A stretch of 64,000 bases of DNA from Methanobacteriota archaeon (GTDB taxonomy: Archaea > Thermoplasmatota > E2 > DHVEG-1). The notes beneath the pieces are model-generated. The model did no database searches. It saw only the letters and a list, made by a program, of their open reading frames with translations, and was not told where the DNA came from. A program made the position numbers and the translations under genes. Location of the stretch: assembly GCA_963769885.1 (NCBI GenBank), contig CAVYNH010000004.1:75904-139903 (forward strand), given 5' to 3'. Shown piece after piece: positions 1,739 through 48,018 of this stretch; the first letter of the stretch is position 1, and every line of letters starts with the position of its first letter.

Positions 1739-1984
1739 ATTAATACCTCCTCATAACTTACAAAAATAAATAAATTATTAATTAATAAATCTTTCGTAAA
1801 TGTGTATGTTGCCCGTACATTCGTTCCTCTTCCTGTTCAATGCATGCAATTTCATAAGGTGAGCCTGCAGAGCACTTCAATGTACTGATGGAGTCTTTTC
1901 TTCGATGCAAGCACCGAGCCGAACACTTTCTTGATGGCCGAGATGATGCCCTCGGTAACCAATCAATAGTAATATTCTTTCATG

Positions 1985-2735
1985 AACTCCTCAAATGGTC
2001 CTTTTAATGGCGGATGTTCCTCCTCCAGGATGAGTTCCCTGACTTTGGCGGTCGAGTTGTTCTTCATCTTGATGTATGGCGTCGCTTGGGAACCGTTCGA
2101 CCTCGCTAGTCATTTCCCGGGAGAGGTATCCAGAGCCCGAACCTATGGTCGTGCTTCCAGCCTTTGGAGCTGAGGTCGACGAGGATCCTGCCGCTGTCTA
2201 GATCCACGGCGAAGTGGACCTTGATGAATTTCCGTTTCGCCTTCTTTTTTCCGTTCCGTACCTGAATCTCTTGCAGAAGACCGTTCGCGGTCTGGATGGT
2301 CGCGGGATAGCGGTGATCATTGACGCCACCGGTCTGTCACTGAACCAGTACGGTCAGTGGATCGGCGAGGTAAGTAACGGGGATGTCCTTGATGTGGTCC
2401 TGCACGATGTTCGCATCAGGGACCGCTTCAAGCAACCACGAATTGTCCTCGCAAACCCACGCAAGAAAACTCTCCGTATCCAGATAGGAGAGGCAGAACA
2501 GGTACTCGAACATCAGGAAGACCGCTATGTCCTTCGGGCGGACCGGAGGCCGGCCCATCGTACCCGACGGACGGACCGTGTACGGGTCCGGCTTTGCTTT
2601 GACCAGTTGTTTCACTCTAAGGATACACCGGGCGTACTTCCATTTCCTCTGCTCTTTGTATCCAACCCAGAATCCCTTGCGGTATTGCTTGTATTTGCGT
2701 CCGCTGTATTTGCTTTTTCTCCTGTTTTTCTTCAT
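1985..2735 (-). pseudogene. IS5-family-like DDE transposase remnant (frameshifted, C-terminally truncated)
   Basis: Track ORF 2337..2735(-) has GRPPVRPKDIAVFLMFEYLFCLSYLDTE, resembling the N-terminal region of IS5-type transposases; after a frameshift the downstream frame reads KVHFAVDLDSGRILVDLSS (first DDE Asp block), then the reading frame decays. GC-rich unlike flanks. Confidence 0.4.
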
Positions 2736-3099
2736 TTTCGCATCCCATCCTGCACCACACTTTTTCGGGATGGATGCTGTCCGACAGTATTAAAACAGTG
2801 AGCGGATTACCCTTAGGAAAGATGCCCATCCTCGCTTTCTTGTGATGGCAAAAACGATATGGGCTTTATCCCGATAAACTTAATTTACGGGCAACACTTT
2901 GAACCAGGAAAAACAATAATAATCGAATGATTGTAAAAAACTAAGATTTTTGACCCCCAACTTTATTAAAATATGTAAGAGATATTATGTAAGAGATATG
3001 TATTAATATAAAGAATTGATAGATATTTGTAGCTCTAAGAAATACATAACTCGTGTCTGAGCAAGTTTTTTAACTCATCAGCCATGTTTTATCCTTACA

Positions 3100-4200
3100 A
3101 CCGCCAAGTTGCAAGCACCGAAACGATCCGCTTATGATTTTCTAATCCCCGATTGGACCGGAAGGCGCCGATGATCTTGCGCATAACCACATGCTCGTGA
3201 ATCGTTTGCTTGGCGACGTTGTCCGTCGGCTGCATCTCTGGATACAGCAAGCACGTATGCTAGCTGCTCGGTCCGTTCATTAGGTATTGCGCCTTCACTC
3301 GCGCCTCAGGATTATCGATGTAGTTATCAACCAGGGATTTAAGTTCCCGGTCCCAGTGCATTTTTTGTTTGATGCGCTGGGACATCGGCGGGTCCTTGCC
3401 GACGAAGACTTTCAACTTCTTGAATCGTCGATGCAACTTTCGGGAGAACCTCTGTTCGTGGTCTGAGAGGGTCGCCAGCATCGACCTCTCGGTGGAGGTG
3501 TGCCCAGCAGCGCTTTACCGTGGGCAGCGCCTGGTAGCTGCGGTGGCCGTCGTTGACCAAGGTGCCGTTGACACCTCGGCGCCGAAGATTTCCTTAGCCC
3601 TTTCTGCTACGGGATGCTCTGATCATTATTAGGACACCCGTACTAATCGGTTAAAAAATCCGCAGCTAGTGGTTCCTCCTCGTGATTGGCACCCCGGTCC
3701 CGCCGGTATGCCGCCAGCGAGTGGTCCTAATCCTCAGTTGGAGACATTCGTATTCGGGAGCGCAGGTGCCCCCAACCCGTAGGGAGATGTTGTGGACGTC
3801 TTTGGGACTAATCTGCAGCCCATATTGTTGGTGGAGGGCGTCCTGGATGCGTCGCAGGACGCCCCGTTGGTGGAACTTCATGAGGGTAATGGTGGTCATG
3901 AGGTGGACGCAGAAGCTGCCTTGGTGTGGACAGTCCAGATGCGCAGCAGTGATTTCGATGCCGCACCCGAGGCAGTGACAGCAGTGAAGGTCGTCACAGG
4001 CAACCTTGACGTGTGGTGGTGGGATGTCTTCGATGGTGCGGAATTCGATGCTGGTCGCGGCTTCTACCTCGGAGCCACATCGGGAGCAGCAAGGGTAATG
4101 ACGATGATTTCATTGGGGTCTGGTATGTCCCGGGTGGCACTGCGGTGGCCCGATAGGGCACCATGTCGCCCTGGCGTGCTGCCCTGCCAGCGTAGATTTT
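3100..4200 (-). pseudogene. GC-rich degenerate segment with transposase-like ORF fragments (family uncertain)
   Basis: Several short overlapping minus-strand ORFs with Cys/His-rich stretches (CDDLHCCHCLGCG) and no continuous frame; composition differs from the AT-rich neighbours. Family assignment not supported. Confidence 0.2.
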
Positions 4201-4515
4201 AAATCGTTGTTGGGACAGTAGCGTATGAGCATTCTCCTACGCCTTTAGTCGTTGTTTGGGCTCTTTTATTCTCCGTTTTTTAAATGGAGCATATTCTGCC
4301 TGACTTTGTCAAGCTGGTTCTGCAGCCCATCCAACTAGTTCTATATCGATAAAAGGCTGCAAGGTTTTTTCAATCAAGAAAAGAGAAGGTCAACTAAATA
4401 ATACACAGATAAAATCTTATAATTATTATATAGTCTATTAAAGCCGATATTCCCTCTTTTGAATAACAAATTTAATATAGTAGTATGTCATTTCATAATG
4501 GTAGAGAGGGAGAAA

Positions 4516-5292
4516 ATGAAAAATAAACCTTTGTATATATCCCTTGGAATCGTTTTTCTATTCATGAGTATTGTGATTTTACCTAGTATCTATGCAGATA
4601 ATACTACATCGATAACCGACAATCTGATTGTTGTAGTACAAACAGATAAATATAACTATGAAGTGGGCGAACCTATTGAAATTTCAATTTATGTTGAAAA
4701 TCATGAAGAGACGGATATTACAGTTGTTTTTCCAACCACCCAAAAAGCAGATTTTCAAGTAAACAATTGCTATCTTTGGTCATTTGGTAAATTTTTTACT
4801 ACATTACCGACAACAGTAACAATACAACCTAAGGAAAAAGTACTACTATTAAATGATAGTTGGGAACAAGTTGATTTCGATGGAAATCAAGTTTCTCCTG
4901 GTTTATTTATTATTACCGGATGGATGGTTCAAACCCAACAATACCCTCCAATTATTTCTGAGCCAGTTACCATTAGAATTGGTTCAGAAATAAAAATCGG
5001 GATTAATTACGGGCTCGGCGTCACAATATCCGCTGCCAATGTCGGAATGTTCAATCTAACCGATATTCGGGAAAATATATCAATCACGGGCGGCAACCTT
5101 GGTTTTATTCACATATCAAGATTATATGAAGTTGATAATTTGAATATTAATCAATCATTTACAAAAACTTTTTATCCCTTTGGTATTGGTCCAATAAAAA
5201 TTGATATTAAAGTTATTGCATCCAACGCTCCAGAATCAACTCTTAAAAAACAATTGTCTTTAATTTTCTTATTTGTGTATCCTGAAGAGTAA
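4516..5292 (+). CDS. Secreted protein, possible BsuPI-like (proteinase-inhibitor-type) beta-sandwich domain
   Basis: ATG at 4516 preceded by GAGGGAG; signal peptide MKNKPLYISLGIVFLFMSIVILPSIYA; YEVGEPIEISIYVENHEETDITVVFPTTQKADFQVNN...WSF pattern recalled as BsuPI-like. Track ORF 4459..5292 probably over-extended at the N-terminus. Confidence 0.45.
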   Translation: MKNKPLYISLGIVFLFMSIVILPSIYADNTTSITDNLIVVVQTDKYNYEVGEPIEISIYVENHEETDITVVFPTTQKADFQVNNCYLWSFGKFFTTLPTTVTIQPKEKVLLLNDSWEQVDFDGNQVSPGLFIITGWMVQTQQYPPIISEPVTIRIGSEIKIGINYGLGVTISAANVGMFNLTDIRENISITGGNLGFIHISRLYEVDNLNINQSFTKTFYPFGIGPIKIDIKVIASNAPESTLKKQLSLIFLFVYPEE

Positions 5293-5648
5293 TCCTATGG
5301 AATAATCAGTTACAGAACTTTTATACTTTTATATAAGGAGGCATGCAGTATATGCCTTACCTATTTACCATTCAAGCATCCGTCGTCTTTCTTTTTTCTT
5401 ATGAGTGTTCATGGTGAGTCCAGGGTAGAGTAATTTCGGTTATTGGTCTTTACCGAAATTCAATGTTCATTTAAGCCATCACGCCCAGAGTCTCCACTCC
5501 TTAACCATCGACAGGATTTATCCGCACCCAACAGAAGTTAAGTTCTGCTGACACAAAGCTGTTTTTCGGCCTCGAATAGAGAGATCCCGTAGGTATTCCT
5601 CATTTCTCAAGGAAAAATTATTATTCATGAAATGGTTATGAGAATAAT

Positions 5649-6374
5649 ATGTCTCAAAAAATATCTCCCATGACAGGATTACCGCGCATTCCCCCACGGA
5701 TACGACTCAAGGCAATATTACCACCTACTTTACCAAAAGATTCCGATGAAATTAATAAAATTATGAAGGAATTCCCGTTTAATGCATTTTTACTCTATAG
5801 TGATATGGATATGGATATCACCGAGTTTGTCCGGTTGCAGGGAGGTCTTCTCCACGATTTGTCTGGTAAGGATTGTCTCATCCATGTCCTAGAAAATCCC
5901 ACGGAATGGGATAACAACTGGGAAAAATATTGGGAGGAAAAACTAGGAGACAAATATTCTGAAATATCGAAATATTGGCATACCTTGCAACCCTGTGAAC
6001 GGAATAAAGCATTCGAGATCGCGAAGGAATTTGGCGTTAAACTTGATTCCCTTCCCTCCATTTTCTTATTTGTTGATTATCAGAGCCGGGAGGGGATATC
6101 AATCCCTATTGTAATCAGCAAGGATAATTATCTAAAATTTTTTGAAGGGCTCTTCCAGAAGATCCATGAAGTATGTGATAATGATTACCAAATTCGACTC
6201 GGGGAATTTAGAAAGTCATACCGTAAATTTTGGCTTAAATGGGTATTGCCGGTGAAAGTGAAAAAAGGTCTTGAAGCCTTCAATGATTGGGGTTCACTCA
6301 TAGCTCAAACAGAAAAGACAATTAAAGACATCATGTCGCCTTTCAATTTGTTACCTGAATCGACCAATAAATAA
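5649..6374 (+). CDS. Hypothetical protein
   Basis: 241-aa track ORF, AT-rich; no motif recognised. Confidence 0.4.
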   Translation: MSQKISPMTGLPRIPPRIRLKAILPPTLPKDSDEINKIMKEFPFNAFLLYSDMDMDITEFVRLQGGLLHDLSGKDCLIHVLENPTEWDNNWEKYWEEKLGDKYSEISKYWHTLQPCERNKAFEIAKEFGVKLDSLPSIFLFVDYQSREGISIPIVISKDNYLKFFEGLFQKIHEVCDNDYQIRLGEFRKSYRKFWLKWVLPVKVKKGLEAFNDWGSLIAQTEKTIKDIMSPFNLLPESTNK

Positions 6375-6735
6375 GGTGCACAATTAAATCAGCACTTTCA
6401 AAGAAGGAATAGATGTTCTCTTGCCACATAGAAAAAACATAGATGAGAATAATAGTTATGATTGAATAAGGGAGGGTTCATTACACCAGTGGTCATAGAA
6501 GCAAACCAGCGGTAATAATGCTTGGGCAAGTGGTCTAGTGGTTATCAGAGGAAAATAACCGTTATGTTTTTTCGTTAAAATATTCAGCGAAGATTTCTAC
6601 GGACTTACTAAAAAACCATTCTTTTTTCTCCCTTTTCTTTCACTATATATTTTTATGACAAATATCACTCTGATATTAACGGAGTAGAACTGACTTGGGT
6701 CCTAAGAAAAAAAAGAATCAGGCTTGAAAGCTTGA

Positions 6736-7010
6736 TCATTTAACCACTGTGAACTGCCAGGAGGCGGCAAGTAGATTCTGATCACTATCGACCAAGATGT
6801 TGCCTTCAGGGTCACGGAACGACGCATAGGCACGATACAAGCCCTCGCCGTTCTTTAAATCCCCTGCCCGAACAAGACCGTTGAAAATCTGATCCAATGC
6901 AAGCTGCTGACCAGGTTCAATCATTCTAGGACTCGATTCATTGACTGCATCATTATCAAGGACCCACTCTCCAGATTGTGGATCGTGGAACTGCACCTGA
7001 ATCGAGAGAC
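6736..7010 (-). pseudogene. Orphan C-terminal fragment homologous to the C-terminus of the giant surface protein (26964..32828)
   Basis: Translation LSIQVQFHDPQSGEWVLDNDAVNESSPRMIEPGQQLALDQIFNGLVRAGDLKNGEGLYRAYASFRDPEGNILVDSDQ aligns with LLIQVEFQDPRTGQWMLDTKAVDEQTPRLIQSGGLLALDSIFHGLVKTDDLRHGNGQYRVYAAFCDQQGNVLIDSDQ; similarity stops within ~30 nt of the stop codon of the OLD-family gene. Confidence 0.5.
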
Positions 7011-7027
7011 ATCCGCATTTTCCTGCC

Positions 7028-8977
7028 TCATAATGCTTTTTTCAAAGTAATTATTTTATTAACAATATTCTCAATTGATTTACACGATTTTCCGTCATTC
7101 TTAGCTTTCTTGATTAACTCCTCAAAAACTGTTGGGTTCTTATCAACTTGTTCAGAACGAAGGCAAAATTGTTTACAACACCCTGCTTTGAAAGTGGTGA
7201 CAAAATCTAACCCCAGTTCACTTGACATCGTTTGTGGTAAATTCTGCTTGAAACATGCATATTTATCTGATATATTGTCGGGCCAATCTACTTCCGGTTC
7301 GCCACATAACTTTAACAATTTTCGATTTTCAATAGGCGTTGATTGAGGTTCTTCAGGAGGATGAAAATCACCATCCCATAATGGATATACTAATATTCCC
7401 ATTTTTTGGAATATTATTAGTGGTTTGTCCATGTTTCCTTTGCCCATACAGGGTATTATGGGGATCCCTTCTGTCTCCATATTTATACCGATAGCTGCAG
7501 CCGTTCCCATGAGTGCAGCCTTATCGCTTTCCCCCTCGACTAAAATTACTAAATTAGAAAAAAAGCCTTCGTTCATAATCGGCGTCATAATTATTCTCAA
7601 ACGGGCTTCTAAACTGTGCGGATTTAAGGTACCTTTTGGTTTTCCATCCGCTCGGTCAATAATTTCAGCTACCTCAAGTAAATTTGTCGATGTGATTTTT
7701 GCCTGTTTTGGTTTTGCTGGATCTATTGTCTTCTTCCGTATTGACCTTATTTGGTCAAGTTTTTTAATATCAACAAATAAAGGAGAGTGTGTAGTGTAAA
7801 TAATCTGTATTTTATCGATAATTTCTCCAATTCTACCTGCTGCCAATTCTTGCAAAATATTTGCAAAATGACGCTGTCTGATTGGATGCTGATATAATTC
7901 TGGTTCTTCGATACCTATTATGAGGTTTGGCAATTTTGCCTTAACAGTAGGAGGAACCCCTGGTTCGCCTTCTTTTTTTTCTTCTGTCGATTGTGTTATT
8001 GCTAACTGTTGAAATAATGTTAAAATAAAAGCTCGTTGCAATCCATGGCCCACTCGATCTATTGATGATGGATAGTCATCTTCTATTAGTTTGATGTCTG
8101 CGATTGGTGATGGAATTTCTATTGTTTTTTGGAAATTCCAGTTTAATTTGATACCCGCATCAGGAATAAACTGTTTTAGGGCAGTATTCAAATTTTCTTC
8201 AAGAACGCCCAGCTCAGTGAAATCTTTAGCTTGTAAAATTTTTTCATATTCACTTTGTGTATTTTCCCCCAATCTGACCAGTTTTGTGTTTCCTGCTAGT
8301 GTTTTACGAACTACTAAATCCATAAGTTCAGTTAAGGGTGTGCCCTTTTTTTCCTCTGCATCCTCTGCAGCATCACGAACGGCAGGAATTAAAATGAATT
8401 TTGTAAATTTTTCAAGATGACTGTTTCCAACAGCATTGAATCCAAAAAACTGACCATCATCTCTACGTCTTGTGCAAGAAGCTTTATTCGCCTCCTCCCA
8501 TTGCTGAAGGAAACTTTCGCATTCTTCCTTGTTAGTATAATCTGGTAACCCAAAAGTTTCCTTCAATGAAGAGTATTCTTTTCTAAGTTGCGATGTGCCA
8601 TGAGCAGATCTAAAAGAATCAAAAGCTGGATTCCGAAGACTTTCGCCATAATATTTTTGTATTGACTTTGGAGTCTGAAACGTAATTATTTTTTGAACAG
8701 TAAGTGTATTGTCGAAAATATATTTATTAAAAAGGGTTTTTTCGTCTTGGTTCAAGTCTTTGTATCTGACGGATATGATTATTTCATTTGAAGTCTCATG
8801 ATTATAAAAATCTTCTTCAGTTATAGTATAATTTATTTCGTAGAAGATTCTTAGAGCTGTTAAAAAGGTTGATTTCCCTGATCCGTTTGGACCTATCAGG
8901 GCAATGAGTTGTTGACAATTAAGTGTTTCATCAACGATACAGCGAAAATTTTGTACCCGTAAACTTTCGATGATCAC
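7028..8977 (-). CDS. OLD-family ATP-dependent endonuclease (N-terminal ABC-type ATPase + C-terminal Toprim)
   Basis: Walker A LIALIGPNGSGKSTFL near N-terminus; C-terminal Toprim-like motifs LVILVEGESDKAAL and PLWDGD; 649 aa; GTG start in track frame. Confidence 0.8.
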   Translation of the reverse strand: MIIESLRVQNFRCIVDETLNCQQLIALIGPNGSGKSTFLTALRIFYEINYTITEEDFYNHETSNEIIISVRYKDLNQDEKTLFNKYIFDNTLTVQKIITFQTPKSIQKYYGESLRNPAFDSFRSAHGTSQLRKEYSSLKETFGLPDYTNKEECESFLQQWEEANKASCTRRRDDGQFFGFNAVGNSHLEKFTKFILIPAVRDAAEDAEEKKGTPLTELMDLVVRKTLAGNTKLVRLGENTQSEYEKILQAKDFTELGVLEENLNTALKQFIPDAGIKLNWNFQKTIEIPSPIADIKLIEDDYPSSIDRVGHGLQRAFILTLFQQLAITQSTEEKKEGEPGVPPTVKAKLPNLIIGIEEPELYQHPIRQRHFANILQELAAGRIGEIIDKIQIIYTTHSPLFVDIKKLDQIRSIRKKTIDPAKPKQAKITSTNLLEVAEIIDRADGKPKGTLNPHSLEARLRIIMTPIMNEGFFSNLVILVEGESDKAALMGTAAAIGINMETEGIPIIPCMGKGNMDKPLIIFQKMGILVYPLWDGDFHPPEEPQSTPIENRKLLKLCGEPEVDWPDNISDKYACFKQNLPQTMSSELGLDFVTTFKAGCCKQFCLRSEQVDKNPTVFEELIKKAKNDGKSCKSIENIVNKIITLKKAL

Positions 8978-9232
8978 AATAATTCCTTTCTAGGATATCC
9001 AGTTGATATATGCTTTTTCCTTTTCATTCTTCTCGAAAAAGTTATACCCTCGCTAACAACTCTTTCAGACTAGAAATGTTTTAGGGCCCTATAAATTAAT
9101 CTAATTTTGATTTTATCAAGACGGTTAACAATGCAACTAATAAAAAGATTTTAATAGAACCTTTAGTTAAGAATCATGCATAGAGGCGCAGGATGACAAA
9201 AGATGACATACTACTGAAATGGGGATATTTTC
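8978..9232. promoter_or_regulatory. Divergent intergenic region between the OLD-family gene and the SbcD-like operon; candidate bidirectional promoter
   Basis: 255-bp AT-rich spacer with TATA-like ccctataaattaat near 9087-9100 and GGGGA RBS before ATG 9233. No experimental support. Confidence 0.25.
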
Positions 9233-10366
9233 ATGCCGATTAAGTTTCTACATACGGCTGACTGGCAAATGGGTATGAAAGCTCTTCAAGCTGGCGAGAA
9301 AGCAAAGGAGGTTCGTGTTAAGCGTTTTGAGACAGCGAAGCGAGTTATTGAATTGGCAAAAAATGAATCTGTTGATTTTGTCATTCTTGCTGGTGATTTA
9401 TTTGAGCATCATGATATTGATGAATTAGTTGTCCGGAAAACAGTGGATATTCTGAACAACTTCAATCCCATTCCAGTCTTTATACTGCCAGGTAATCATG
9501 ATCCTCTTGTTTCCGGCGGCATCTGGGATCGGCATAGCTGGCAGCAAGTTAAAGGTCATATTACACTACTTCGAGAGGCTAAAGAAACCTTGGTCTCGGA
9601 TCAGGTCGTCATTTATCCTTCGCCATTATCCCAGAAACAAAGTTCGACCGATCCGACAGAATGGATTCCAACCAGAACTCCTGGCGATAATCGTATTAGG
9701 ATTGGGATCGCGCACGGTTCTTTAAACATATTACCTGAGCGTACCAACTTTCCTATTGCAGCTGACCGTGCGGATAAATGTTCATTGGATTGTTTGGCTC
9801 TTGGAGATTGGCACAGTTTCCTACAACATGGTCGGACTGTCTATCCTGGTACTATGGAGCAGACAAGCTTCACCGAAAAAGATTCGGGAAACGTTGCAAT
9901 AGTAGAGATTAAGAAAGTGGGTAATGAGCCGATTGTTTTTAAAAAACATATTGGACAATTCCTTTGGAGCGAGCATCAACCAACTATTCAGGACAAAACC
10001 GATGTTGATGGTTTTCGTGCCTTACTCTTGAAACAAGCATCGCTTTCCAACCAACTACTTAGGATAGCACCGATAATCACTCCAGAAGCCTCTTCAGACG
10101 CTATATCCGAACTAAAAATACTTCGAGATGAGCTGTTTGAAGAATCATTCTTTCTCAACTGGCCAGATGAAATGTTTAATACCACCCTTGATACCTCAGC
10201 GCCCTTACCGGACGGACTACTATCTAATGTGGATATTGACTTCGCAAACATTCTCAATCACCGGATTCCAGATGGACCTGGCCAGGAGTTCGCATCAGCT
10301 GACTTAACAGTGGTCCTTGAGGCACGAACTCTTCTCAGACGAATTGCAAAAGAGGGGGCAAAATGA
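9233..10366 (+). CDS. SbcD/Mre11-like calcineurin-type metallophosphoesterase (nuclease subunit-like)
   Basis: Motifs FLHTADWQMG (motif I with Gln where SbcD has His), ILAGDLFEH, LPGNHD, IAHGSL, GDWH; stop overlaps start of downstream gene (ATGA at 10363-10366). Confidence 0.75.
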   Translation: MPIKFLHTADWQMGMKALQAGEKAKEVRVKRFETAKRVIELAKNESVDFVILAGDLFEHHDIDELVVRKTVDILNNFNPIPVFILPGNHDPLVSGGIWDRHSWQQVKGHITLLREAKETLVSDQVVIYPSPLSQKQSSTDPTEWIPTRTPGDNRIRIGIAHGSLNILPERTNFPIAADRADKCSLDCLALGDWHSFLQHGRTVYPGTMEQTSFTEKDSGNVAIVEIKKVGNEPIVFKKHIGQFLWSEHQPTIQDKTDVDGFRALLLKQASLSNQLLRIAPIITPEASSDAISELKILRDELFEESFFLNWPDEMFNTTLDTSAPLPDGLLSNVDIDFANILNHRIPDGPGQEFASADLTVVLEARTLLRRIAKEGAK

Positions 10367-21452: not shown

Positions 21453-21854
21453 TTATTTCCTTGGTTGATACTCGTGAGGTATGGTTACTGGTTTTGAATC
21501 GACCTTGTTTTCCCGGGCAAGCCAGCCCAATGCTGCGTAGACATCCCGCTCATCCATCTGGTGTAACGTGGAGACGTCGCAGACATCGATGGTCCCTCGT
21601 GTTTCCAGCTCTTTCCATATCTTCCCTGCATCGACCCCAATCTTTCCCGTGAGATTGGTATCCCCAAGCCTATAGATAGGACCTTCCTTGCAGATCTTGT
21701 TCTCTCGGGCAAGCCAGCCAACCGCGCTGTAAAACGCGTCATCATGCATCCGCGTGGTTTCCTTTAATTTCGTTTCAGTTTGTGGTCCAAACGTCTGAAG
21801 CGTCCTCCAGATCTCTCCAGCATTCTTTCCGAATTCTTCCATGACATTCGTCAT
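21453..21854 (-). CDS. Tandem winged-helix protein (DUF2582-like, two internal repeats), GC-rich copy
   Basis: Two repeats each containing NAGEIWRTL / DAGKIWKEL and (A/V)GWLARENK motifs; 133 aa. Confidence 0.6.
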   Translation of the reverse strand: MTNVMEEFGKNAGEIWRTLQTFGPQTETKLKETTRMHDDAFYSAVGWLARENKICKEGPIYRLGDTNLTGKIGVDAGKIWKELETRGTIDVCDVSTLHQMDERDVYAALGWLARENKVDSKPVTIPHEYQPRK

Positions 21855-21959: not shown

Positions 21960-22382
21960 CTATTTCAATTTTATTTGGTATTTTTTTGGTATTGTTTTCG
22001 TTGTTTCTATTTTATCTTCTCGAGCGAGCCATCCTAATGCGCAGTAGACATCTTTTTCATCTATCTGGAGATGATTCATAATGTTGTGCATGTCAACCTT
22101 TCCGTGCATCTCCATTATTTTCCATACCTTTCCTGCATCGGCTCCGATTTTATCGGTTAAATTTGTTTCTCCAAGTTTGTATATAGGTCCATCTTTGCAA
22201 ATTTTATTTTCTCGTGCCAGCCATCCAATTGCCACATAGAATTCATTATCATGGAATCGTGTGGTTTCTTTGAGTCTTGTTTCAGTTAACGGTCCGTAGG
22301 TATTCAGCGTCTTCCATACCTCTCCAGCATTCTTTCCGAATTCTTCCATGACATTCGTCATCAAGTGTCCACCTTCGTGCAT
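21960..22382 (-). CDS. Tandem winged-helix protein (DUF2582-like), AT-rich paralog of 21453..21854
   Basis: About 75% identical to the upstream copy at protein level (MTNVMEEFGKNAGEVWKTL...IGWLARENKICKDGPIYKLG) but much lower GC; true start probably the internal MTNVMEEF. Confidence 0.6.
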   Translation of the reverse strand: MHEGGHLMTNVMEEFGKNAGEVWKTLNTYGPLTETRLKETTRFHDNEFYVAIGWLARENKICKDGPIYKLGETNLTDKIGADAGKVWKIMEMHGKVDMHNIMNHLQIDEKDVYCALGWLAREDKIETTKTIPKKYQIKLK

Positions 22383-23070: not shown

Positions 23071-23180
23071 TGAAATAGAGGCTTTTCGTCTATGACCCCG
23101 TTCCGCCTTCGTTCCTTTCATCTGCGGATCTGAACCGCAGTAAAAATCGCGCAGTATTCCCGGCCGCTATTGATAAGATC
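23071..23180 (+). repeat. Intact copy of the ~110-bp intergenic repeat family
   Basis: tgaaatagaggcttttcgtctatgaccccgttccgccttcgttcctttcatctgcggatctgaaccgcagtaaaaatcgcgcagtattcccggccgctattgataagatc; internal hairpin ctgcgg/ccgcag. Confidence 0.65.
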
Positions 23181-24597: not shown

Positions 24598-26580
24598 ATG
24601 AAAAAAAGACGCTTTAGTGTAGTAATAATATTGATGCTGGTCCTGTCAACGACGACCCTAATTTACTTAAACAACCCAATAACGAAAGCAGGCACACAAA
24701 ATTGGTTTCCACTGATTCCGGATGGGTTTGGAAAGGCTTCAAACGTGGCGACACGAGGCATGGCTATCTTCAAAGGTGATCTCTACGTCGGCACTCAAAA
24801 CAATAATCCTATCCTCCATAATCTAGAACTCGGTGGTTTCCCTGCAAGCACACTCATCTTGATGGCGGATGGCTCTTCCAAAACTGTTGAACAAATCAGG
24901 GTTGGGGACATGGTGAAAGCCTATGATTTCGATAGTAACGTCTTCACCAGAGCCAGGGTAACTTCATTAATGCAGACCTCTCTTCAAGATATATCCAGCC
25001 TCATCGTAATCAACAACAAAGTCACTGCAAGCCCGTATCAACTCTTTTCTGTCGGCGATACCTTGAATATCGCTGAGAATCTCAGAATCGGTGACCGTCT
25101 AGTAGATAGCCATGGATTAGCCGCCCCGATAACCTCAACATCTCAAATCACCAACCTCGGAAAAGTATATAGTTTCACTATGACGGTGAATATATCACAA
25201 CTCGGCAGCCTTGCATTCTATGCTAACAATATCCAGGTGTATCCCTGGGTTCCGAATCAGCCTGCACAACCGTATGGACTGCAGGGTGGGCAAGAGGGAC
25301 GAGATGGGGAATGCATCGACTCACTGTTCCCATTACTCAAAGGATTGGGGAACTGGACTGCGACAAAGATATGCAATGTAGGAATTGATCTTATCGCAGC
25401 GTCTAGTGACGGTGGTGAACTATGGAAATATAATGCAACCCAACAACACCCCTGGACGCCAATCATCGGGAACACCAGCAGGATACACTCTGGGTTCAAC
25501 CACACTACGAACTGGGTGATAACCGCTCCAACGGTGTTTACGAACAATACTAACATGACTCACCTTTACGTTGGTACATGGCGATCAAGAATCCCCCTCG
25601 ACCAACCGTTAGTTGGCGGCTGTCAGATATGGCGATTCGATGGGACGACATGGCAAGAAGTCGTCTTCGCTGGATTCGGCGATGCCTACAATGTCGGTGT
25701 CATGACCATGGCGGTCTTCAATAACACCCTCTACGCGGGTACGTTGAACTTCAACTGGATGTCGAACGGATTCACGCAAATCTGGCGGACTGTGGATGGT
25801 GTGAATTGGAATAAGGTCGTCGATCGAGGATTCCGAGATGTGCAGCCGGTAGGGGGCTTCAAGAATGCATATACTTGGAGTATGGGCGTGTTCCAAAACC
25901 AGCTCTACGCTGGGACATTCAATATCCCCGTCGGTGATAATAGTACGCAGGGCTGCCAGCTCTATCGAACCTCTACTGGTAATCCGAGTGATTGGACCCT
26001 AGTACCCATCAATGGTTCAGCGTATGGCATCGGAGAACAAACGATATTCTATGGCATTCGGAACTTAATAAATTATAACAACCAATATTTCTACGTTGGC
26101 GTCACCGCCAGTTTCTTGCAACGGAAACTGCAAAACCATCCCGATCCCAAGGGGCTTGAGATCTGGAGGTACGCAGGAGGAACCAGTTGGACTTGTATGG
26201 CGGGGGACAAGGCGACGAACAACCCTAACTCCACTAGCTACTGTGGTTTCGGCAATTACTATAATAAATACCCCTGGTCGATGGCTCTGTGTGGTGGCAA
26301 GCTCTGGGTAGGGACCGCAAATACACAAGAACTAGCGAATTGGTCTTCGATTACCCAAGGAGGCGAAGTCTGGCGGCTAGATAATACAACATGGACGCAG
26401 GTTGTAGGAAACCGATCAGGCGCTGAAATGCCGAGCGGGTTTGATGAATTGTTAAATTGGGCCATGCGGTCGATGATTGAGTACCCCAAGGACAGCGGAC
26501 AGCTCATCGTGGGAACCTACAGTGATCAGACCTACACGAATCCTCCGGAAGCCTGCGAGATCTGGATCCGGTATCCATAA
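24598..26580 (+). CDS. Secreted repeat (beta-propeller-like) protein with an embedded Hint-like domain lacking catalytic residues
   Basis: AGGAGGGAG RBS; N-terminal hydrophobic signal; residues ~78-220 GGFPASTLILMADGSSKTVEQIRVGDMVKAYD...KVYSFTMTVNISQLGSLAFYANNIQVYPW follow Hint block order; remainder has repeated LY(V/A)GT...C(Q/E)IWR..G..W units. Confidence 0.6.
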   Translation: MKKRRFSVVIILMLVLSTTTLIYLNNPITKAGTQNWFPLIPDGFGKASNVATRGMAIFKGDLYVGTQNNNPILHNLELGGFPASTLILMADGSSKTVEQIRVGDMVKAYDFDSNVFTRARVTSLMQTSLQDISSLIVINNKVTASPYQLFSVGDTLNIAENLRIGDRLVDSHGLAAPITSTSQITNLGKVYSFTMTVNISQLGSLAFYANNIQVYPWVPNQPAQPYGLQGGQEGRDGECIDSLFPLLKGLGNWTATKICNVGIDLIAASSDGGELWKYNATQQHPWTPIIGNTSRIHSGFNHTTNWVITAPTVFTNNTNMTHLYVGTWRSRIPLDQPLVGGCQIWRFDGTTWQEVVFAGFGDAYNVGVMTMAVFNNTLYAGTLNFNWMSNGFTQIWRTVDGVNWNKVVDRGFRDVQPVGGFKNAYTWSMGVFQNQLYAGTFNIPVGDNSTQGCQLYRTSTGNPSDWTLVPINGSAYGIGEQTIFYGIRNLINYNNQYFYVGVTASFLQRKLQNHPDPKGLEIWRYAGGTSWTCMAGDKATNNPNSTSYCGFGNYYNKYPWSMALCGGKLWVGTANTQELANWSSITQGGEVWRLDNTTWTQVVGNRSGAEMPSGFDELLNWAMRSMIEYPKDSGQLIVGTYSDQTYTNPPEACEIWIRYP

Positions 26581-26963
26581 AGAAACAGAAGGAAATGGCT
26601 GGCCTTTGCGTGATGGTGCCGGCCATTTTTCTCCTCTTTTCTTCGATGGCATGTTACGCAATCGACGCATTAGCTTGTTCTGCAAGTTAAAATTATAGTT
26701 GATATTGGACCTGTGAGGGTTCCGTTTATAGGGAGGGGGGTTCTCCCCGATGTGTCGGGGGAATTCTTTGTATTGGAATCGAAGATTAAAGGTCTGAATG
26801 AGCAAAGAGGTTACGAATTTCACTCAATTCTCTCTGTCTCTTCTCAGTCAGAATATATCGCAATATCGGGAAAAAGGTGATCCGGCGGACTTCATGAATG
26901 GATAATGCAAGACTTCAAATTAGAGAAAAAAGAGAGATAGAATCAGGGGAGGATCCCCTGATT

Positions 26964-29900
26964 CTACAGGCCGCTGACGCTGAACACAAACGCGGAGACG
27001 AGATGATGCTGGTCGCTGTCGATGAGGACGTTCCCCTGCTGGTCGCAGAATGCCGCATAGACCCGATATTGCCCATTCCCATGTCTGAGGTCATCGGTTT
27101 TCACAAGGCCATGGAAGATGCTGTCAAGGGCCAACAGCCCGCCGCTTTGAATGAGCCGCGGGGTTTGCTCGTCAACCGCCTTCGTATCCAGCATCCATTG
27201 TCCAGTCCGCGGGTCCTGGAACTCCACCTGGATCAGGAGGTAGCCCCGGATGTCCGTGATCCCAGTGTTCTTGATCTTCGACTGGTTCCGGCACTGCACG
27301 ACCAACCGAGGCTGGCATCCAATCCCCTGGAACTCATAGGAGGAGATAGCGACGTATTCATTCCCGGTCGGCGTGGTCCCGCTGATGTCCCTGCTGCTAC
27401 GTAGGCAGAGTTTTGTCACTCCGATCCGATTGATCCAGCCGAGCCCCTGGCTGTTGAGGGAGAGATCGTTGAACCCGTTGACGAAGTTATTAGTGTTGAA
27501 CTGCCCGCCGTTCCCTGAATACAGGCTCTTGTCGTAATCCGTGACGATGAGAGGATTATGGGGATAGGTCGGCTGTCCGTTCTGGACCGTGATCAGGAAG
27601 TCTGTCGTCGAGTAGTCACCCATTTTATAGAGGCCTAGTGTGGCGGCGTCGATGATGGCGTTCGACGGGATTCGTGTCGTGTCGAAGAAGAGGAATCCTC
27701 GGTAAAGGGAGTATGGTCCGAACGGTGGATTGAATTTTTGCCCGATGAGGATGGAGGCGCCAGTGTTGTCGACGGTGCCTCGGGTGCTTGTCCACGCGGT
27801 GTTGTAATTCGTGTTCGAGTTGTAGATATAGCCATCCGTTGCTTGGGAGTAGAGCGTGATGCTGGGATCGACCTCGGGGAATGCGTCGGTCAGTTCAATG
27901 ACCTCTCCTTTGGTGTACGAGGTTTTGAGCGTACCGACGCTAAGGGTCGCATGGGCGGCGATGTCGAAGTAGAATCCGGTCGCGGTTTGCTCGTTGCCGA
28001 GGTTATCGACGGCCCTGACGCTCACGGGATATCGCCCGGTGAGCCAGGTGTCGTTGAAGTAGCACTCGTATCTGTTCGGGACGCCAGTGACGAGGGTCAT
28101 TGGGATCTGTGTTTCTTTCATTTGTTGGGATTGGTTCGGTAACTGGATTGCTGCTGTTGCTGCCTTCACGCCGCTGATGTTATCCATGATGGTGGCTTGG
28201 ATGTGGATTTGTGAGCCGAAGCCACTCAGTGAGGGCGTGACCAAGACTGACGTGATGTACGGTCCGTCGGCGTCGAACGTGGCATGGTGGGTCTCGGTGG
28301 AGCTTTGATTGCCCTGGATGTCGATGGCGTGGGCGGAGAAGGTGTAGGTGCCGGAGAGTCCGGTGAAGGTGTGGGCGAGCTTGTGGACGCTGTTGTTGTA
28401 GGAGGCTTGGATTTCTTCCCAGCTTAATGCCCTGGCGTAGAGCTGCGGCTCGTCGAGGAGGCCGCGGAAATGGTGGTACTCCGCCGTGTTCTCTTCTGAG
28501 AGGCAGGTCTCCTGGTTGTTTGTGATGTCGCGGACGGTGCCGGTGGTGCTCTGGTCGAATTCGCCGTCGACGTAGAGTCGAAGCTCGGTGCCCTGCCGGA
28601 CGTAGGCGATGTGATGCCATGCCTCGGCGGTGATGGGGATGGTTCCGGTGAGGCTGGTGGTTTGGCCTGGGAGTGATCCTTGCGAGGTGAAGATGCGTGC
28701 GTATGAATTGGAGATGCCGCAGTAGTATCCCTGGCCGGTGGCTTCAGGCTGGTTGCTCAGGATGATGCGGATGCTTGGGGGCTCGAAGGAGACGGGGACG
28801 TTCACCCACGTCATGAAGGTGAAGTCGCCTGTTCCTAAGTTCAGGCTAGGGTCTTTTCCGCAGTGGACCGCATCGTCGATGCCGTCAAAGTCTAATGCCT
28901 TTCCGAATTTCCCGGTGACAATATCGGATGGCCCAAGGCCTCCCCAGAAGACCCCGTTGTTGTGATACGTCGAGTCGTCAATCACACTGGTATCGTTGTA
29001 GTCGTCCATGGGCCAGTAGCCGCGGAGGGTTCTGTTCCAGTCGATGAACGCCGCTGTCTGGAGGCCGTCCTCGACGGTGGCGTTCACTTGTGCCCAGCTC
29101 TGGTTGATCATCGCGTTATCTGGCGGTGTGGGCGGGACAAAGTAGATGATGGGGGTGGGCGTGACCGTGAAGTTGAACTCGTTTGAGTAGTTGGTGTTGT
29201 TCGCGTTGTCGACGGCCCATACCCGGCCTCTGTATTCGCCGCTCTGCTGGGTGTCGGAGAAGGTGAGGAAGTAGCTGTCGTTGATGATGTGGGTCATGGG
29301 GTATTCAGCCGTCGAGTTGTCGGGGGCGGTGATGTTGACCCAGGCGGTGTTGATGCCGCTGTCGTTGTCGGCGATCACTGCCGCTATTGAGGCGTTCATG
29401 CCGACGCCGACGACTTCCGGCGTGACGTCGAGGTACGTGATCTTCGGCGGGGTCATCTCGAAGGTGATGTTGAGCTGTTTTGTTATGGAGTGGAGTTGGT
29501 GTGTATCATCGGTCACGGTCAGCGTGACGTTGTATTGGCCTACGTTTTCATAGAAGTGGGTCACGTTTCGACCATTGGTGATGTTTCCATCCCCGAAATT
29601 CCACGTCCAATCGGTGATATGGAGGCCGTCGCAGGCGGCCGAGGTGTCATTGAAGACGATGGGGTAATCCGGGTTAACGTAGGGGTAGTTCGGGACGCTG
29701 AGGTTGTAGCTAACGTTGAGCGGCATGACCGAGACGTTGACTGAAATCTCCTCTATGTAGTTATTCGCATCCGAGACCCTGAGACGAACGACGTTGTCGT
29801 CTCCGGCTCTTTCGAAGTGATGGACCAGGGTCTGTTCATGGTGGGGGATCAGCTCGTTGTTTATGGTCCACTCATAGTCGACGGGGGCAATCGCGCCGGC

Positions 29901-32828
29901 TACCTGCGCGGCATAGATGGAGTCGATACCGACGACGGACGGCATCGAGGTCGCTCCGAGCACGCTCTGTGCGGATGCCGCTGCGGAACAGGACATCAAC
30001 AGATCCAACGAGAACTTGACCGTGACCGTGAACGGATCGGAGAATACACTCCAGTTTCCGTATCGGCTGACGCCAGGCATGGCTCCATCGAAGAGATACC
30101 CTTTGAAGTCCTCGCGGGCTCTCACCACGATCGTGCGCGATCCCGCCCAATGGTAGACGTGGGATGCGTCGCATGGGTGGTCTTCAACGATCGGCCCGAC
30201 GCGATCATTGTCATTTGTCCACTCATAGTTCCAGTACCATTGATATTGTAATGGGTCTCCTTCGTCATCATCGGTCCCGGTTGAACTGAATGTGGCTTTC
30301 TCTCCGGCATGGACGGTGGTCGGGCCGGTAATGTCCCCTGGCTTGTTGGGGTCGACATTGCTGCGCTTATCTAAATGAACGAAAGGAACCTGCGTCGCGA
30401 TATCATTCGGGCGACTGGTTTCATCCCTGATAATATTGTCAATTCGTCCGGAGGAATTGTACAGCTCGAGGTGGAGTTTATACCAGCCGGCGTTCACCCC
30501 ATTTACCGGCGGCAGCGTCATCGTGATCGTCTTCTGAACGCCGTCGGAGGTCGCTTCGAAATCAAAGTATTTCCACGTGACGTCCTGGCAATCGTCATTT
30601 AGGAGGCTGGCTTTGATTCTCACCTTGTCTGAGGGGAGGGTGGATGTCACGGTGAGCGTCGCCTGAATAGAGTCATCCTTTCCATCCTGATCGATGTCAA
30701 CAACGTTAAAAGTCACCGGTCCGTCGAACTCGCAGTCGGGGTTCAGCATGTAATATTTGAAGATATCCCAGATCAATTCCGTAGAGGCGACGACGTCGCT
30801 GTGATCGATGTATTGCATGCTGTCGCCGTCGGTATAGTTGTCGCCGGCTCGATGCCATTGATCCCAGGAGTATCCGATATATTTTGGTTTGCCAAAAATG
30901 TTCTTGCCGACGACGCTGTCACCCTTGAACAGACAGGTCGTATTTGCTTGGGGAAATGTAGCATTGACCGTCCCCTGTTCTGATCCAAAACCAGATCCAG
31001 CTCTGACCCAGCAATCGTAATTCGAATAGCCGCTCTCTTTTCGAATGGTATCCAATGTTTTTTCTCTCTCTTTTTCTGTTGTGAAAATCGACACTCCGCA
31101 GTTCTTCTGGTTAAAGCCGAGTTGGTCGAGGATCAGCCAATGTACTAGGGTATTACCCAGACTACCTGAATGATTGTCGACGTAGTGTCGAGCGCCTTGG
31201 AATCCGTGTTCCTCCGCCGTTGTGAAAAGGAACGTGAGGTTGTATTTTGGTTTGATGGAGGGATGGTCTTTGACGTATTTTGCTATGGTGAGGACGATTG
31301 CGCACCCGACTCCGGAGTCGCCGGGTGTCTGTCCCCACATGCCGTCGTACCTATTTGAGAAGATCCCAACAGCGTTACCGGGGCTTCCGCCGGGAATCGA
31401 GATGTTGGCATAGACGTCGTCCCCTATCGTCCCTGGATGTCCCGGCGTCTCTTCGAGGTAATCCTGTCTTGCATCGCCGGTAAGAGTCGTGGTGTCATGA
31501 TTCTCGCTTAAGAAATCGCCAGCCGTGTAATTTAACGTCAGTATTGGCAGCATATAGGTAGAATTTTTTTCGGTATTTTGATCGACAACAAAATGGTAGT
31601 CATGCGAATCATATAAAATAACAGCTGTGCAATTGAGTGCCGGACAATTGATGAAATTAAAGAATTGTGTGACGAGTGTGGCAGCAAATAAGACATGAGC
31701 AAAACTTACTTTGGCATGGATGGCTTCGTCCTGGTGGGTGGGGAAATTCACGAGGGTTTCACCTAATGCGATCGTCTTGTATAATGGGTGACTATACCAT
31801 GTCACATTCAACAGTTCACTGTGATCCGGGATTCTACAAAGGAGAACAAATGGCTGGTACGCGGGATAAATACCAAGGAAATCATAACGGAAGGTCAGAT
31901 CCGTCATGAAGTCTCCAAAGTTATCTACTAAGACGACAGGGTAGCTTGACAGGCGTTCTTTCACCTCGTTCCCAGATTCGTTATCAATCCAAAGAACGGG
32001 GTAACAACAATTTGAGGTATCAGTAATGTATTCGATTCCTTGATCATTGTAGTCAACGATGATGACCGCTGTTGCGTCAGTGATGGTATCCAGCTTTGCC
32101 TGCGCTCCTGGCAGATCGTCAATCAGGAAGACGCGGTCAATCATATAGTCTGGTGGGCAAGGATCGTCGGGTCCTATGTAATGAACAATTCCGAAGATCA
32201 CTTTGAAAATATAGTCAGTCAATTTCCCGAATTCACGAACGGTGTAGGAGCCTCTCCCTCCAAATAATTTTCCGAGCTCAAAGGGGACGATCTTGGTATT
32301 ATCGAAGACATAATGCTTTGTCCAATTTTCGCTTCGCGAAGCGGCATTGTCTTTACTTGCTTCTATTGTGTTTTTATAGGGGATATATCCGATTTCCTTC
32401 CGTGAAATAGGATTCATGAATGGGTACGTCGGTGCTCCAGGATCTGTGTTGACGCTCAAGTGAAAATCGGTGTCGTTGATGATGCATGAATAGTTTCTAT
32501 GCGCTTCATTGATGTAGGCAAGTCGCTCTGTTTTTACATTCCCCTGGCCGAACATGGTTTCAAGTCGAGGCACCAGTATTTCATTTGCAGTGTATATTCC
32601 TCCTTTTGAGTCAAAGTTCCTTCCCTTGGGGATATCAGTTTGGTTGTATGCATCGTATATCACATTGGTCAGATTCCCTAACACTTCCCAGAGATAATCA
32701 TAGTCGAGGCCTTCTGGCACAGCCACGGCTTTTGAGACGCTGTTCTTTGGGTCGAATTTGGTTACCATTAGACTGGTTGCCACGAGCATCAAACAGACTA
32801 CTAGTCCGAAAAATTTCCTACTTACCAT
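26964..32828 (-). CDS. Giant secreted multidomain surface protein (M28-peptidase-like, PKD-like and LamG-like domains; many N-glycosylation sequons)
   Basis: 1954 aa; GGAGG RBS; signal peptide MVSRKFFGLVVCLMLVATSLMV; FLFTTAEEHGFQGARHYV (M28-like EE motif); WNFGDGNITNGRNVTHFY and YQWYWNYEW (PKD-like); LRGYWPMDDYNDTSVIDDSTYHNNG...LRLYVDGEF (LamG-like). Confidence 0.8.
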   Translation of the reverse strand: MVSRKFFGLVVCLMLVATSLMVTKFDPKNSVSKAVAVPEGLDYDYLWEVLGNLTNVIYDAYNQTDIPKGRNFDSKGGIYTANEILVPRLETMFGQGNVKTERLAYINEAHRNYSCIINDTDFHLSVNTDPGAPTYPFMNPISRKEIGYIPYKNTIEASKDNAASRSENWTKHYVFDNTKIVPFELGKLFGGRGSYTVREFGKLTDYIFKVIFGIVHYIGPDDPCPPDYMIDRVFLIDDLPGAQAKLDTITDATAVIIVDYNDQGIEYITDTSNCCYPVLWIDNESGNEVKERLSSYPVVLVDNFGDFMTDLTFRYDFLGIYPAYQPFVLLCRIPDHSELLNVTWYSHPLYKTIALGETLVNFPTHQDEAIHAKVSFAHVLFAATLVTQFFNFINCPALNCTAVILYDSHDYHFVVDQNTEKNSTYMLPILTLNYTAGDFLSENHDTTTLTGDARQDYLEETPGHPGTIGDDVYANISIPGGSPGNAVGIFSNRYDGMWGQTPGDSGVGCAIVLTIAKYVKDHPSIKPKYNLTFLFTTAEEHGFQGARHYVDNHSGSLGNTLVHWLILDQLGFNQKNCGVSIFTTEKEREKTLDTIRKESGYSNYDCWVRAGSGFGSEQGTVNATFPQANTTCLFKGDSVVGKNIFGKPKYIGYSWDQWHRAGDNYTDGDSMQYIDHSDVVASTELIWDIFKYYMLNPDCEFDGPVTFNVVDIDQDGKDDSIQATLTVTSTLPSDKVRIKASLLNDDCQDVTWKYFDFEATSDGVQKTITMTLPPVNGVNAGWYKLHLELYNSSGRIDNIIRDETSRPNDIATQVPFVHLDKRSNVDPNKPGDITGPTTVHAGEKATFSSTGTDDDEGDPLQYQWYWNYEWTNDNDRVGPIVEDHPCDASHVYHWAGSRTIVVRAREDFKGYLFDGAMPGVSRYGNWSVFSDPFTVTVKFSLDLLMSCSAAASAQSVLGATSMPSVVGIDSIYAAQVAGAIAPVDYEWTINNELIPHHEQTLVHHFERAGDDNVVRLRVSDANNYIEEISVNVSVMPLNVSYNLSVPNYPYVNPDYPIVFNDTSAACDGLHITDWTWNFGDGNITNGRNVTHFYENVGQYNVTLTVTDDTHQLHSITKQLNITFEMTPPKITYLDVTPEVVGVGMNASIAAVIADNDSGINTAWVNITAPDNSTAEYPMTHIINDSYFLTFSDTQQSGEYRGRVWAVDNANNTNYSNEFNFTVTPTPIIYFVPPTPPDNAMINQSWAQVNATVEDGLQTAAFIDWNRTLRGYWPMDDYNDTSVIDDSTYHNNGVFWGGLGPSDIVTGKFGKALDFDGIDDAVHCGKDPSLNLGTGDFTFMTWVNVPVSFEPPSIRIILSNQPEATGQGYYCGISNSYARIFTSQGSLPGQTTSLTGTIPITAEAWHHIAYVRQGTELRLYVDGEFDQSTTGTVRDITNNQETCLSEENTAEYHHFRGLLDEPQLYARALSWEEIQASYNNSVHKLAHTFTGLSGTYTFSAHAIDIQGNQSSTETHHATFDADGPYITSVLVTPSLSGFGSQIHIQATIMDNISGVKAATAAIQLPNQSQQMKETQIPMTLVTGVPNRYECYFNDTWLTGRYPVSVRAVDNLGNEQTATGFYFDIAAHATLSVGTLKTSYTKGEVIELTDAFPEVDPSITLYSQATDGYIYNSNTNYNTAWTSTRGTVDNTGASILIGQKFNPPFGPYSLYRGFLFFDTTRIPSNAIIDAATLGLYKMGDYSTTDFLITVQNGQPTYPHNPLIVTDYDKSLYSGNGGQFNTNNFVNGFNDLSLNSQGLGWINRIGVTKLCLRSSRDISGTTPTGNEYVAISSYEFQGIGCQPRLVVQCRNQSKIKNTGITDIRGYLLIQVEFQDPRTGQWMLDTKAVDEQTPRLIQSGGLLALDSIFHGLVKTDDLRHGNGQYRVYAAFCDQQGNVLIDSDQHHLVSAFVFSVSGL

Positions 32829-44757: not shown

Positions 44758-44812
44758 AAGTTTCTTGCCTCTTGGGGTGTGTAGGGAGTCGGTAGGTTTA
44801 AATGTAGCAAAA

Positions 44813-47888: not shown

Positions 47889-48018
47889 TTTCTCTGACCC
47901 CCTCCAGGAATTTATAAGGAGTAGAACGATTATCTTTCTCCGAGAAAAATAAGGTCAAAATTGACCCCCAGATGCTGCGAGCATCCAGGGGTCTGAGACC
48001 ATAATAGGATGTGCTATT

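Follow-up and report, generated by a model that had tools for sequence, protein, structure and literature searches.

The DNA analyzed here is a 64,000-nt stretch (the window) from an uncultured Thermoplasmatota archaeon. On its minus strand lies a complete OLD-family nuclease gene (7028..8977), which encodes a 649-aa protein with an AAA_15 ATPase and an OLD TOPRIM domain and ends with a TGA at 7030-7028. Past this stop come a junction of 13 nt (7015..7027; GGCAGGAAAATGC on the minus strand), which holds a breakpoint, and then the first homologous base of a minus-strand block of 92 codons (6739..7014; GCLSIQVQFHDPQ...WQFTVVK), referred to here as the stub. The block corresponds to the C-terminal three quarters of the terminal beta-sandwich domain of a family of giant proteins and is read here as a truncated gene remnant. 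It is followed by a TGA (6736..6738, minus strand), taken as the original stop of the truncated gene, and by an inherited 3' element (6700..6735, minus strand) made up of a weakened hairpin with one stem mismatch, ATCAAGCTT..AAGCCTGAT, and a run of eight T residues (T8) at 6707-6714. Farther on, 188 nt beyond the stub's stop and antisense to the stub, the plus strand carries an orphan 5' piece of a tRNA-Val gene (6524..6547; tRNA positions 1 to ~24; GGGCAAGTGGTCTAGTGGTTATCA), which marks a second breakpoint. On the far side of this sliver lies a convergent plus-strand gene (p241; 5649..6374; GC content, 0.39) for a 241-aa ORFan protein, for which no homolog except itself was found in 5.8 billion proteins. 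The comparison reference was the intact family member of the window, a minus-strand gene (26964..32828) for a 1954-aa protein with Peptidase_M28, PKD, and Laminin_G_3 domains, whose terminal domain is encoded at 26967-27320.

The stub was compared with this protein by BLASTP, using the translation of 6736-7026 (minus strand) as the query and the 1954-aa product as the subject. The two align without gaps over 90 residues (window 6745-7014, minus strand), with 48 identities (53%; 78% positives) and an E value of 2e-33, and the matched part of the giant protein, residues 1862-1951, is its extreme C terminus. An earlier note on this DNA, made from the letters alone, had described about 90 codons from the C-terminal end of the giant surface protein directly after the OLD-family gene; that description holds, although the amino acid identity is 53% rather than the ~60% given there. 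The note's further point that no upstream remainder exists is borne out by tblastn, which retrieved no other piece of the giant anywhere in the 64 kb. When the stub is aligned with the 3' end of 26964..32828, as the note had proposed, homology ends at 7014, and at the DNA level BLASTN returns only two patches of 70-74% identity. Amino acid identity rises from 53% for the in-window giant to 62% for the best full-length relative and 81% for the closest fragment.

The window was queried with 81 large ORFs from related loci, and 35 of them matched the stub. The alignment of these family proteins from other genomes starts at 7014 in 31 cases, at 7017 in 3, and at 7029 in 1, so the boundary is sharp. 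Given the OLD stop at 7030-7028 and alignment starts at 7014 or 7017, homology begins 11 to 14 nt past that stop, an even shorter distance than the ~30 nt claimed earlier. The stub's reading frame is open over the 92 homologous codons and for only 9 codons further upstream. It is in the +1 frame relative to OLD and is open across the four codons preceding the OLD stop (7028-7045, minus strand). An OLD-stub fusion through a +1 slip on the A6 run there (TTG AAA AAA GCA TTA TGA) found no support and is probably a coincidence. A palindrome at the 5' boundary, CCTGATyCAGG, was considered as a recombination site and set aside, as it is explained by conserved LLIQV codons.

The family to which the stub belongs is defined by its terminal domain of ~115 aa, for which there is no Pfam model. 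A profile search with this domain yielded 510 cluster representatives; by far the most of these are proteins of 1000-2400 aa in which the match stops within a few residues of the C terminus. The same placement prevails in ~100 loci fetched from genomes and metagenomes, where several paralogs per genome occur, sometimes as tandem pairs, and where the neighboring genes are archaeal (e.g., archaeosine TGT and ribosomal proteins L19e and L32e). An AlphaFold (AF2) model of the domain, built from a shallow alignment (pLDDT 73), is a beta sandwich. Its Foldseek matches are all of a generic Ig/FnIII/transthyretin-like kind (E about 0.01; TM 0.35-0.45), and a specific fold assignment was abandoned. Two paralogous proteins of ~640 aa, whose N termini give a weak Hint-like signal, are also encoded in the window (24598-26580 and 39699-41561, plus strand), and their homologs in relatives are fused to the terminal domain or lie directly after it (L042 10325-11230; L010 11655-12929).

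Homology of the stub to this family rests on the BLASTP result, on the 35 aligning family proteins, and on a family hidden Markov model built without the stub, which gives the stub 124 bits, more than the 109 bits of the window's intact giant. The stub has kept the residues that are invariant in the family. However, the stub begins at domain residue 26: residues 26-118 are present, and the first 25 residues, including one predicted strand, are missing, as are the 1000-2000 or so further residues that a full-length member would have. A full member of the family carries a complete domain of ~115 aa at the end of a protein of >1000 aa, and the stub has neither. Judged by its sequence, then, the stub is a remnant of a family member and not a functional member.

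In public data, the stub appears as a small hypothetical protein: one record annotates a 62-aa protein (P0001), and a second source calls an 86-aa ORF. The two calls differ because of the available start codons, a GTG at 6996 (86-aa ORF) and an internal ATG (62-aa product), both of which lie inside the homologous stretch; there is no ATG at the stub's start. A free-standing small gene in relatives, the observation that the earlier note had set against its own reading, was sought and not found, and the closest relative is longer and disrupted. Neither the short database matches followed up, nor the orphan loci, nor that closest relative offered a conserved small-gene counterpart. Among the short representatives, three domain proteins were traced: P0142 and P0143, both from very short contigs of low coverage, are pieces of bigger genes in which a stop or a frameshift interrupts the reading frame, and in P0090 a family gene is cut off where its contig ends. 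A further protein, P0002, is the end of a larger gene that continues into junk sequence.

Orphaned copies of the domain do recur among the related loci, where they make up roughly a tenth of all domain copies, a share that fits a fast-turnover family shedding pseudogene fragments. Loci L002-L005 carry a decayed remnant of the whole domain beside purH, and L020 has a copy of ~150 codons between rpS15 and a PQQ-protein gene. In L022 (2602-3770), ~150 codons start where a DDE transposase gene ends, a clean case of the same type of remnant made by an insertion sequence. L044 and L049 retain stubs of ~55 codons each. The 5' ends of these orphans are scattered and differ from that of the window stub. 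A site-specific cut common to the window and L002-L005, which an apparent shared "G[CS]L" start had brought up, was rejected, as the L002 remnant reaches further upstream (IKQIGG aligning with IKNIGS), contains indels, and has different boundaries. The closest relative of the stub, on metagenome contig L059 (81% amino acid and 77% nucleotide identity), extends ~65 codons further upstream and carries both an in-frame stop and a one-base frameshift. Homology between L059 and the window is confined to 7016 to ~6700, and since an IS701-like transposase gene sits directly past the L059 terminator, that flank is uninformative for synteny.

Comparison with L059 also bears on the age of the truncation. 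The two sequences differ at 12, 8, and 42 sites at codon positions 1, 2, and 3, respectively, and their dN/dS ratio is 0.07 (Nei-Gojobori). Nearly all of this divergence must therefore have arisen under protein-level selection, while both copies lay within working genes. The stub itself carries no disabling mutation, its 92 codons being free of stops and frameshifts. Because the frame is still open and the divergence from L059 is almost entirely synonymous, the truncation is probably recent in evolutionary terms.

The stub also retains the 3' end typical of its family. Genes of this family are followed, 20-50 nt past the stop, by a hairpin of the form (A/G)TCAGG-loop-CCTGA(T/C) and then a T-run. 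In a survey of the 3' tails of family genes in L006-L117, in which the motif was sought within 100 nt after the stop, a relaxed version was found in 61 of 93 distinct tails, compared with 50 of 3000 random 100-mers (1.7%). The intact in-window giant has a perfect copy at 26942-26962. That of the stub is degraded by its single stem mismatch: the 55-nt stretch at 6691-6745 that holds it has a predicted folding energy of -7.4 kcal/mol, versus -22.2 kcal/mol for the equivalent stretch after the intact gene. The retention of hairpin and T-run after the stub indicates that the surviving unit is the true 3' end of a gene, terminator included. Variants such as GTCAGG..CCTGAC and ATCAAG..CTTGAT look compensatory. 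The hairpin could be a candidate terminator, an RNA-stability element, or a protein-binding site, and its variable loop lengths argue against a recombinase core site. Archaeal transcription termination relies on oligo-T tracts, and the first such tract on the minus strand after the OLD stop is the stub's T8 (6707-6714). As OLD has no oligo-T of its own, its transcripts would probably run through the stub and end at this inherited T8. Serving passively as a terminator for OLD transcripts is the only role that the stub is likely to have at present; as a protein it is most likely functionless.

The gene on the other side of the junction is complete. Its product matches AAA_15 (1.6e-41) and OLD-like_TOPRIM (3.8e-15), its best PADLOC match is "Old" (1.9e-53), and homologs of 640-670 aa cover 100% of it, with the C terminus collinear to the last residues. 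Its GC content is 0.36, compared with 0.49 for the stub. Its nearest relatives (60-65% identity) lie in three distinct contexts: in L054, OLD is followed by a 200-aa protein and a SIR2_2-like protein, with an integrase and a tRNA-Arg gene 5.5 kb away; in L056, it faces RmuC; and in L057, small ORFs follow it. Metagenome and viral scans added no close relative. The only DNA common to the window and these three loci is the OLD ORF with ~50 nt upstream of it, ending at the stop codon. With the context different each time, OLD appears to move as a single gene and behaves as a mobile single-gene cassette. It shares AAA_15 and the OLD-like TOPRIM with P2 Old, Gabija GajA, and PARIS AriA; unlike those OLD-family systems, the window gene lacks a partner, and the neighbors of its closest relatives vary. 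Six kilobases from OLD, a weakly SIR2-like 377-aa protein and a 160-aa partner are encoded at 14618-16239 (minus strand), and the SIR2_2-like 361-aa protein directly after OLD in L054 (2513-4197) is 26% identical to the former (E 1e-9); the window's OLD and SIR2-like genes may be a broken-up OLD-SIR2 system.

The earlier note attributed the truncation to the arrival of an AT-rich "OLD/SbcCD island." The AT-richness and mobility of OLD agree with this, but there is no such unit. The Mre11/Rad50-like pair next to OLD (9233-13053) has a GC content of 0.41-0.44, equal to the window mean, and scores far under the curated cutoffs for housekeeping Mre11/Rad50 or SbcCD. In none of the relatives examined (L054, L056, and L057) does the pair adjoin OLD.

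Nor does the stub sit at the edge of an AT-rich block, as the note had supposed. Its GC content forms a small bump between two AT-rich stretches of ~0.35 on either side, and the ORFan and the tRNA-Val piece occupy the far side. The tRNA-Val piece was found by eye and then confirmed against L023/L083, where 22 of 23 nt match the 5' end of tRNA-Val(TAC). It is single copy in the window, and the rest of the tRNA is absent downstream. ARAGORN and Rfam searches identified no tRNA or known RNA anywhere in the 1- to 34-kb region, the junction included, and the 150-nt spacer between the stub's terminator and the tRNA-Val piece gave no matches. With AT-rich DNA, an ORFan, and a broken tRNA-Val beyond the stub, at least two breakpoints are needed: judging from what adjoins it, a sliver of ~490 nt (6524-7014), composed of the stub, its terminator, and the antisense tRNA-Val piece, is framed by them. 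The order and nature of the underlying events, insertion or deletion, we infer rather than observe.

We consider it highly probable that one giant secreted/surface-protein paralog has left only a dead 3' remnant, the stub, at the OLD junction in this archaeon. The stub resembles other gene remnants at rearrangement junctions in the variable or defense regions of prokaryotic genomes, being a partial ORF whose homology ends abruptly in mid-domain, with mobile or accessory genes on either side, and it is comparable to the same-family remnants in relatives, one of which was cut by a DDE transposase. Compared with the usual gene remnant, it is unusually clean, and it has kept its own terminator, now located where the OLD gene needs one.

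Two alternatives would assign the stub a specific place in an insertion. In one, a single AT-rich OLD/SbcCD island entered a full-length paralog, and the stub marks the island's edge. The short distance of at most 13 nt between the OLD stop and the stub agrees with this account, as does the character of OLD itself: AT-rich (0.36), mobile, set among varying neighbors, and represented in L054 by a copy 5.5 kb from an integrase and tRNA-Arg. The 5' part of the interrupted gene would be expected at the island's other end, however, and none is present in the 57 kb upstream of the stub. In addition, OLD and the Mre11/Rad50-like pair are unlinked in relatives, with the pair not AT-rich; the far side of the stub is as AT-rich as the near side and holds the ORFan and the broken tRNA; and neither a target-site duplication nor terminal repeats rise above chance, a 16-nt inverted pair (7027-7042/14281-14296) being 1 of 17 similar pairs. 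Of the note's view that an insertion truncated a paralog, the truncated 3' end and the mobility of OLD survive, whereas the lack of a 5' part in 57 kb and the two AT-rich flanks tell against it. No relative with an empty site or an intact ortholog at the locus was found, so truncation by the arrival of OLD cannot be shown, and no neighborhood shared with the window emerged when 49 related loci were searched by tblastn with 35 of its proteins. We therefore regard a single-island insertion as unlikely. In the other alternative, an element entered the 3' end of the 26964-32828 giant itself and supplied a substitute end, pushing the old end 20 kb downstream. The icd fragment at e14/phage 21 is a displaced target-gene fragment of this kind. 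Such fragments mark the ends of integrated islands, including the tRNA and tmRNA islands in Islander (PMC4383910), and the same principle applies to dusA islands (PMC4482086). As in those islands, a 3' fragment lies downstream of a full-length homolog in the same orientation: giant and stub are on the same strand, ~20 kb apart, and bracket accessory DNA. The interval nevertheless differs from them in lacking an integrase and an identical core, and the tRNA piece near its end is a 5' one. Pfam scans of all ORFs of ≥120 aa detected no integrase between 7 and 27 kb, the window's integrases lying outside it at 48019-49014 and 56141-57493. The genes in this interval encode OLD, the Mre11/Rad50-like pair, an IS110 DEDD transposase, the SIR2-like protein, a Y1 transposase, and HTH, response regulator, CBS, and Hint-like proteins, so that ordinary regulatory genes are among them. 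The longest exact runs at the 5' boundary are 6-7 nt, with no identical crossover core, and the giant, at 53% amino acid identity to the stub, is no nearer to it than paralogs in other genomes, which reach 62% (81% in the case of L059). Displacement from the giant is thus very unlikely.

The remaining alternatives concern what the stub is rather than how it arrived. A free-standing small gene for an autonomous domain of 62-86 aa would account for the open frame, the invariant residues, the HMM score in the range of functional members, and the low dN/dS against L059, features equally expected under continuing selection, and two sources do annotate or call a gene here. Against this, homology extends upstream of every possible start, preceding both the GTG and the ATG, and ends in mid-domain; the stub has neither the N-terminal strand nor a signal sequence; every short family match that was checked proved to be a broken or incomplete large gene or to end with its contig; and L059 has a stop, a frameshift, and a different 5' end. 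The low dN/dS is explained by divergence while both copies sat in full-length genes. A missing domain start, a missing start codon, and a disrupted closest relative argue against a stub kept by selection, and we hold a functional small gene to be highly improbable. A silent donor cassette for recombinational replacement of C termini, of the pilS or Rhs/CdiA type, is suggested by the recurrence of orphan 3' fragments in the lineage (~1/10 of domain copies) and by the conserved 3' hairpin that these fragments keep. Rhs/CdiA orphan modules consist of a variable toxic tip, with a conserved recombination tract before it and an immunity gene after it. The likeness lies in the repeated occurrence, within one lineage, of C-terminal fragments of giant surface or secreted proteins that have no promoter. 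The stub, in contrast, is the conserved part of the family and not a variable tip, with no partner or immunity gene after it: downstream are only a spacer, the tRNA piece, and the convergent ORFan. Orphan boundaries are scattered, several orphans carry stops or frameshifts, and DNA identity to the window's only expressed copy, ~65-70% in short patches, is too low for homologous exchange. A donor function can hence be given very little credence. A diversity-generating retroelement with template and variable repeats was likewise considered and discarded, given ~65-70% nucleotide identity in patches and no reverse transcriptase domain in the ORFs scanned. Finally, the junction might have arisen through chimeric assembly: the source is evidently a metagenome-assembled genome, and the repeated 3' ends of this family break assemblies, several contigs starting inside the domain. 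Yet an independent Logan assembly of run ERR10755944 (L001) spans the junction, matching window positions 2215-14114 (11.9 kb) at 99.98%. The junction is therefore not the artifact of one assembler, and we regard a chimera as negligibly probable.

If the stub is a dead 3' remnant, the related loci suggest how its parent gene might have come to lie beside a tRNA. Among 64 family gene ends having enough downstream sequence, four (L011, L015, L018, and L025) show the order family gene, tyrosine integrase, and convergent tRNA within 3 kb; in L023/L083, L061, and L073, an integrase and a tRNA follow a family gene at a greater distance or on loci outside this count. In L025 (2442-11759), a 17-nt direct repeat of the tRNA-Arg 3' end (AACGGACCTGGCGGGAT) brackets 9.3 kb containing a 633-aa ORF, a 1699-aa giant gene, and an integrase. 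The 633-aa ORF matches, in position and orientation, the PQQ beta-propeller partner found at other loci, its PQQ identity being by position only. In L083 (714-17014), 16.3 kb with content as in L025 lies between two copies of a 12-nt repeat from the tRNA-Val 3' end. The giant family genes of these two loci look like cargo of integrative elements.

The sliver has the order and orientation of such ends (giant gene, integrase, then a tRNA facing them), minus the integrase and the 3' two thirds of the tRNA. One may therefore imagine that the paralog was once carried by an element integrated at tRNA-Val and that 6524-7014 is the collapsed end of that element after decay: the body of the gene would have been lost in one event, beside OLD, and the integrase together with two thirds of the tRNA in another. 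However, the tRNA-Val piece comes from the 5' end of the gene, whereas relatives have tRNA 3' ends as their att repeats. As the piece is not an att site, this origin requires an extra deletion that was not site specific. An element of this type is recognized by a tyrosine integrase beside an intact tRNA whose 3' end recurs as a direct repeat on the far side; the sliver has neither integrase nor repeat. It is plausible that a tRNA-integrating element decayed here and left the stub as its last trace, although we would sooner bet against this than for it.

The window as a whole is a pronounced GC mosaic. Housekeeping genes to the right of a tRNA-Arg gene (57700-62600; eIF2-gamma and Rpo7-like) have a GC content of 0.52-0.61, and positions 1-57500 lie mostly at 0.26-0.45, with GC-rich inserts at the giant gene, 42865-45210, and 1950-4300; accessory DNA may make up most of the window. 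At 56141-57638, a tyrosine integrase gene (56141-57493; 450 aa, 64% identical to the L054 integrase near OLD) lies beside the 3' end of tRNA-Arg(CCG). No att repeat of this tRNA exists to the left of the 56-kb integrase. The only exact copy of its 3' end is an inverted one of 18 nt at 63867-63884, located 6.2 kb rightward, across housekeeping genes. A TIR-domain protein (323 aa) adjoins a second, XerC/D-like tyrosine recombinase (331 aa) at 46917-49014, a further defense-plus-recombinase pair of this AT-rich region. The flanks of an IS110-family transposase gene (13302-14279), at 13192-13218 and 14569-14601, are contiguous at 23098-23180 (93% and 91% identity), so this insertion sequence sits inside a short repeated element, an uninterrupted copy of which lies 9 kb away. 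Tandem DUF2582 winged-helix genes form a 243-nt repeat with 75% identity (21612-21854 versus 22119-22361).

For annotation, the consequence is that a sequence recorded or called as a small hypothetical protein of 62 or 86 aa in two public sources deserves a fragment flag. The stub also fixes one breakpoint of a mobile OLD defense cassette to within 13 nt, and it is a predicted example of a leftover terminator reused by a newly adjacent gene. Alone, the stub matters little; of more interest is the lead offered by the giant genes themselves, which carry a conserved 3' hairpin, are bracketed by att repeats in two relatives, and thus point to a mobile surface-protein repertoire. It is possible, though on balance doubtful, that in this lineage tRNA-targeting integrative elements carry the giant surface-protein genes as cargo, often together with a PQQ beta-propeller partner, and that stubs such as this one are footprints of the rapid gain and decay of these elements. 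If so, the surface-protein repertoires of these archaea would turn over by element traffic and not by evolution in place.
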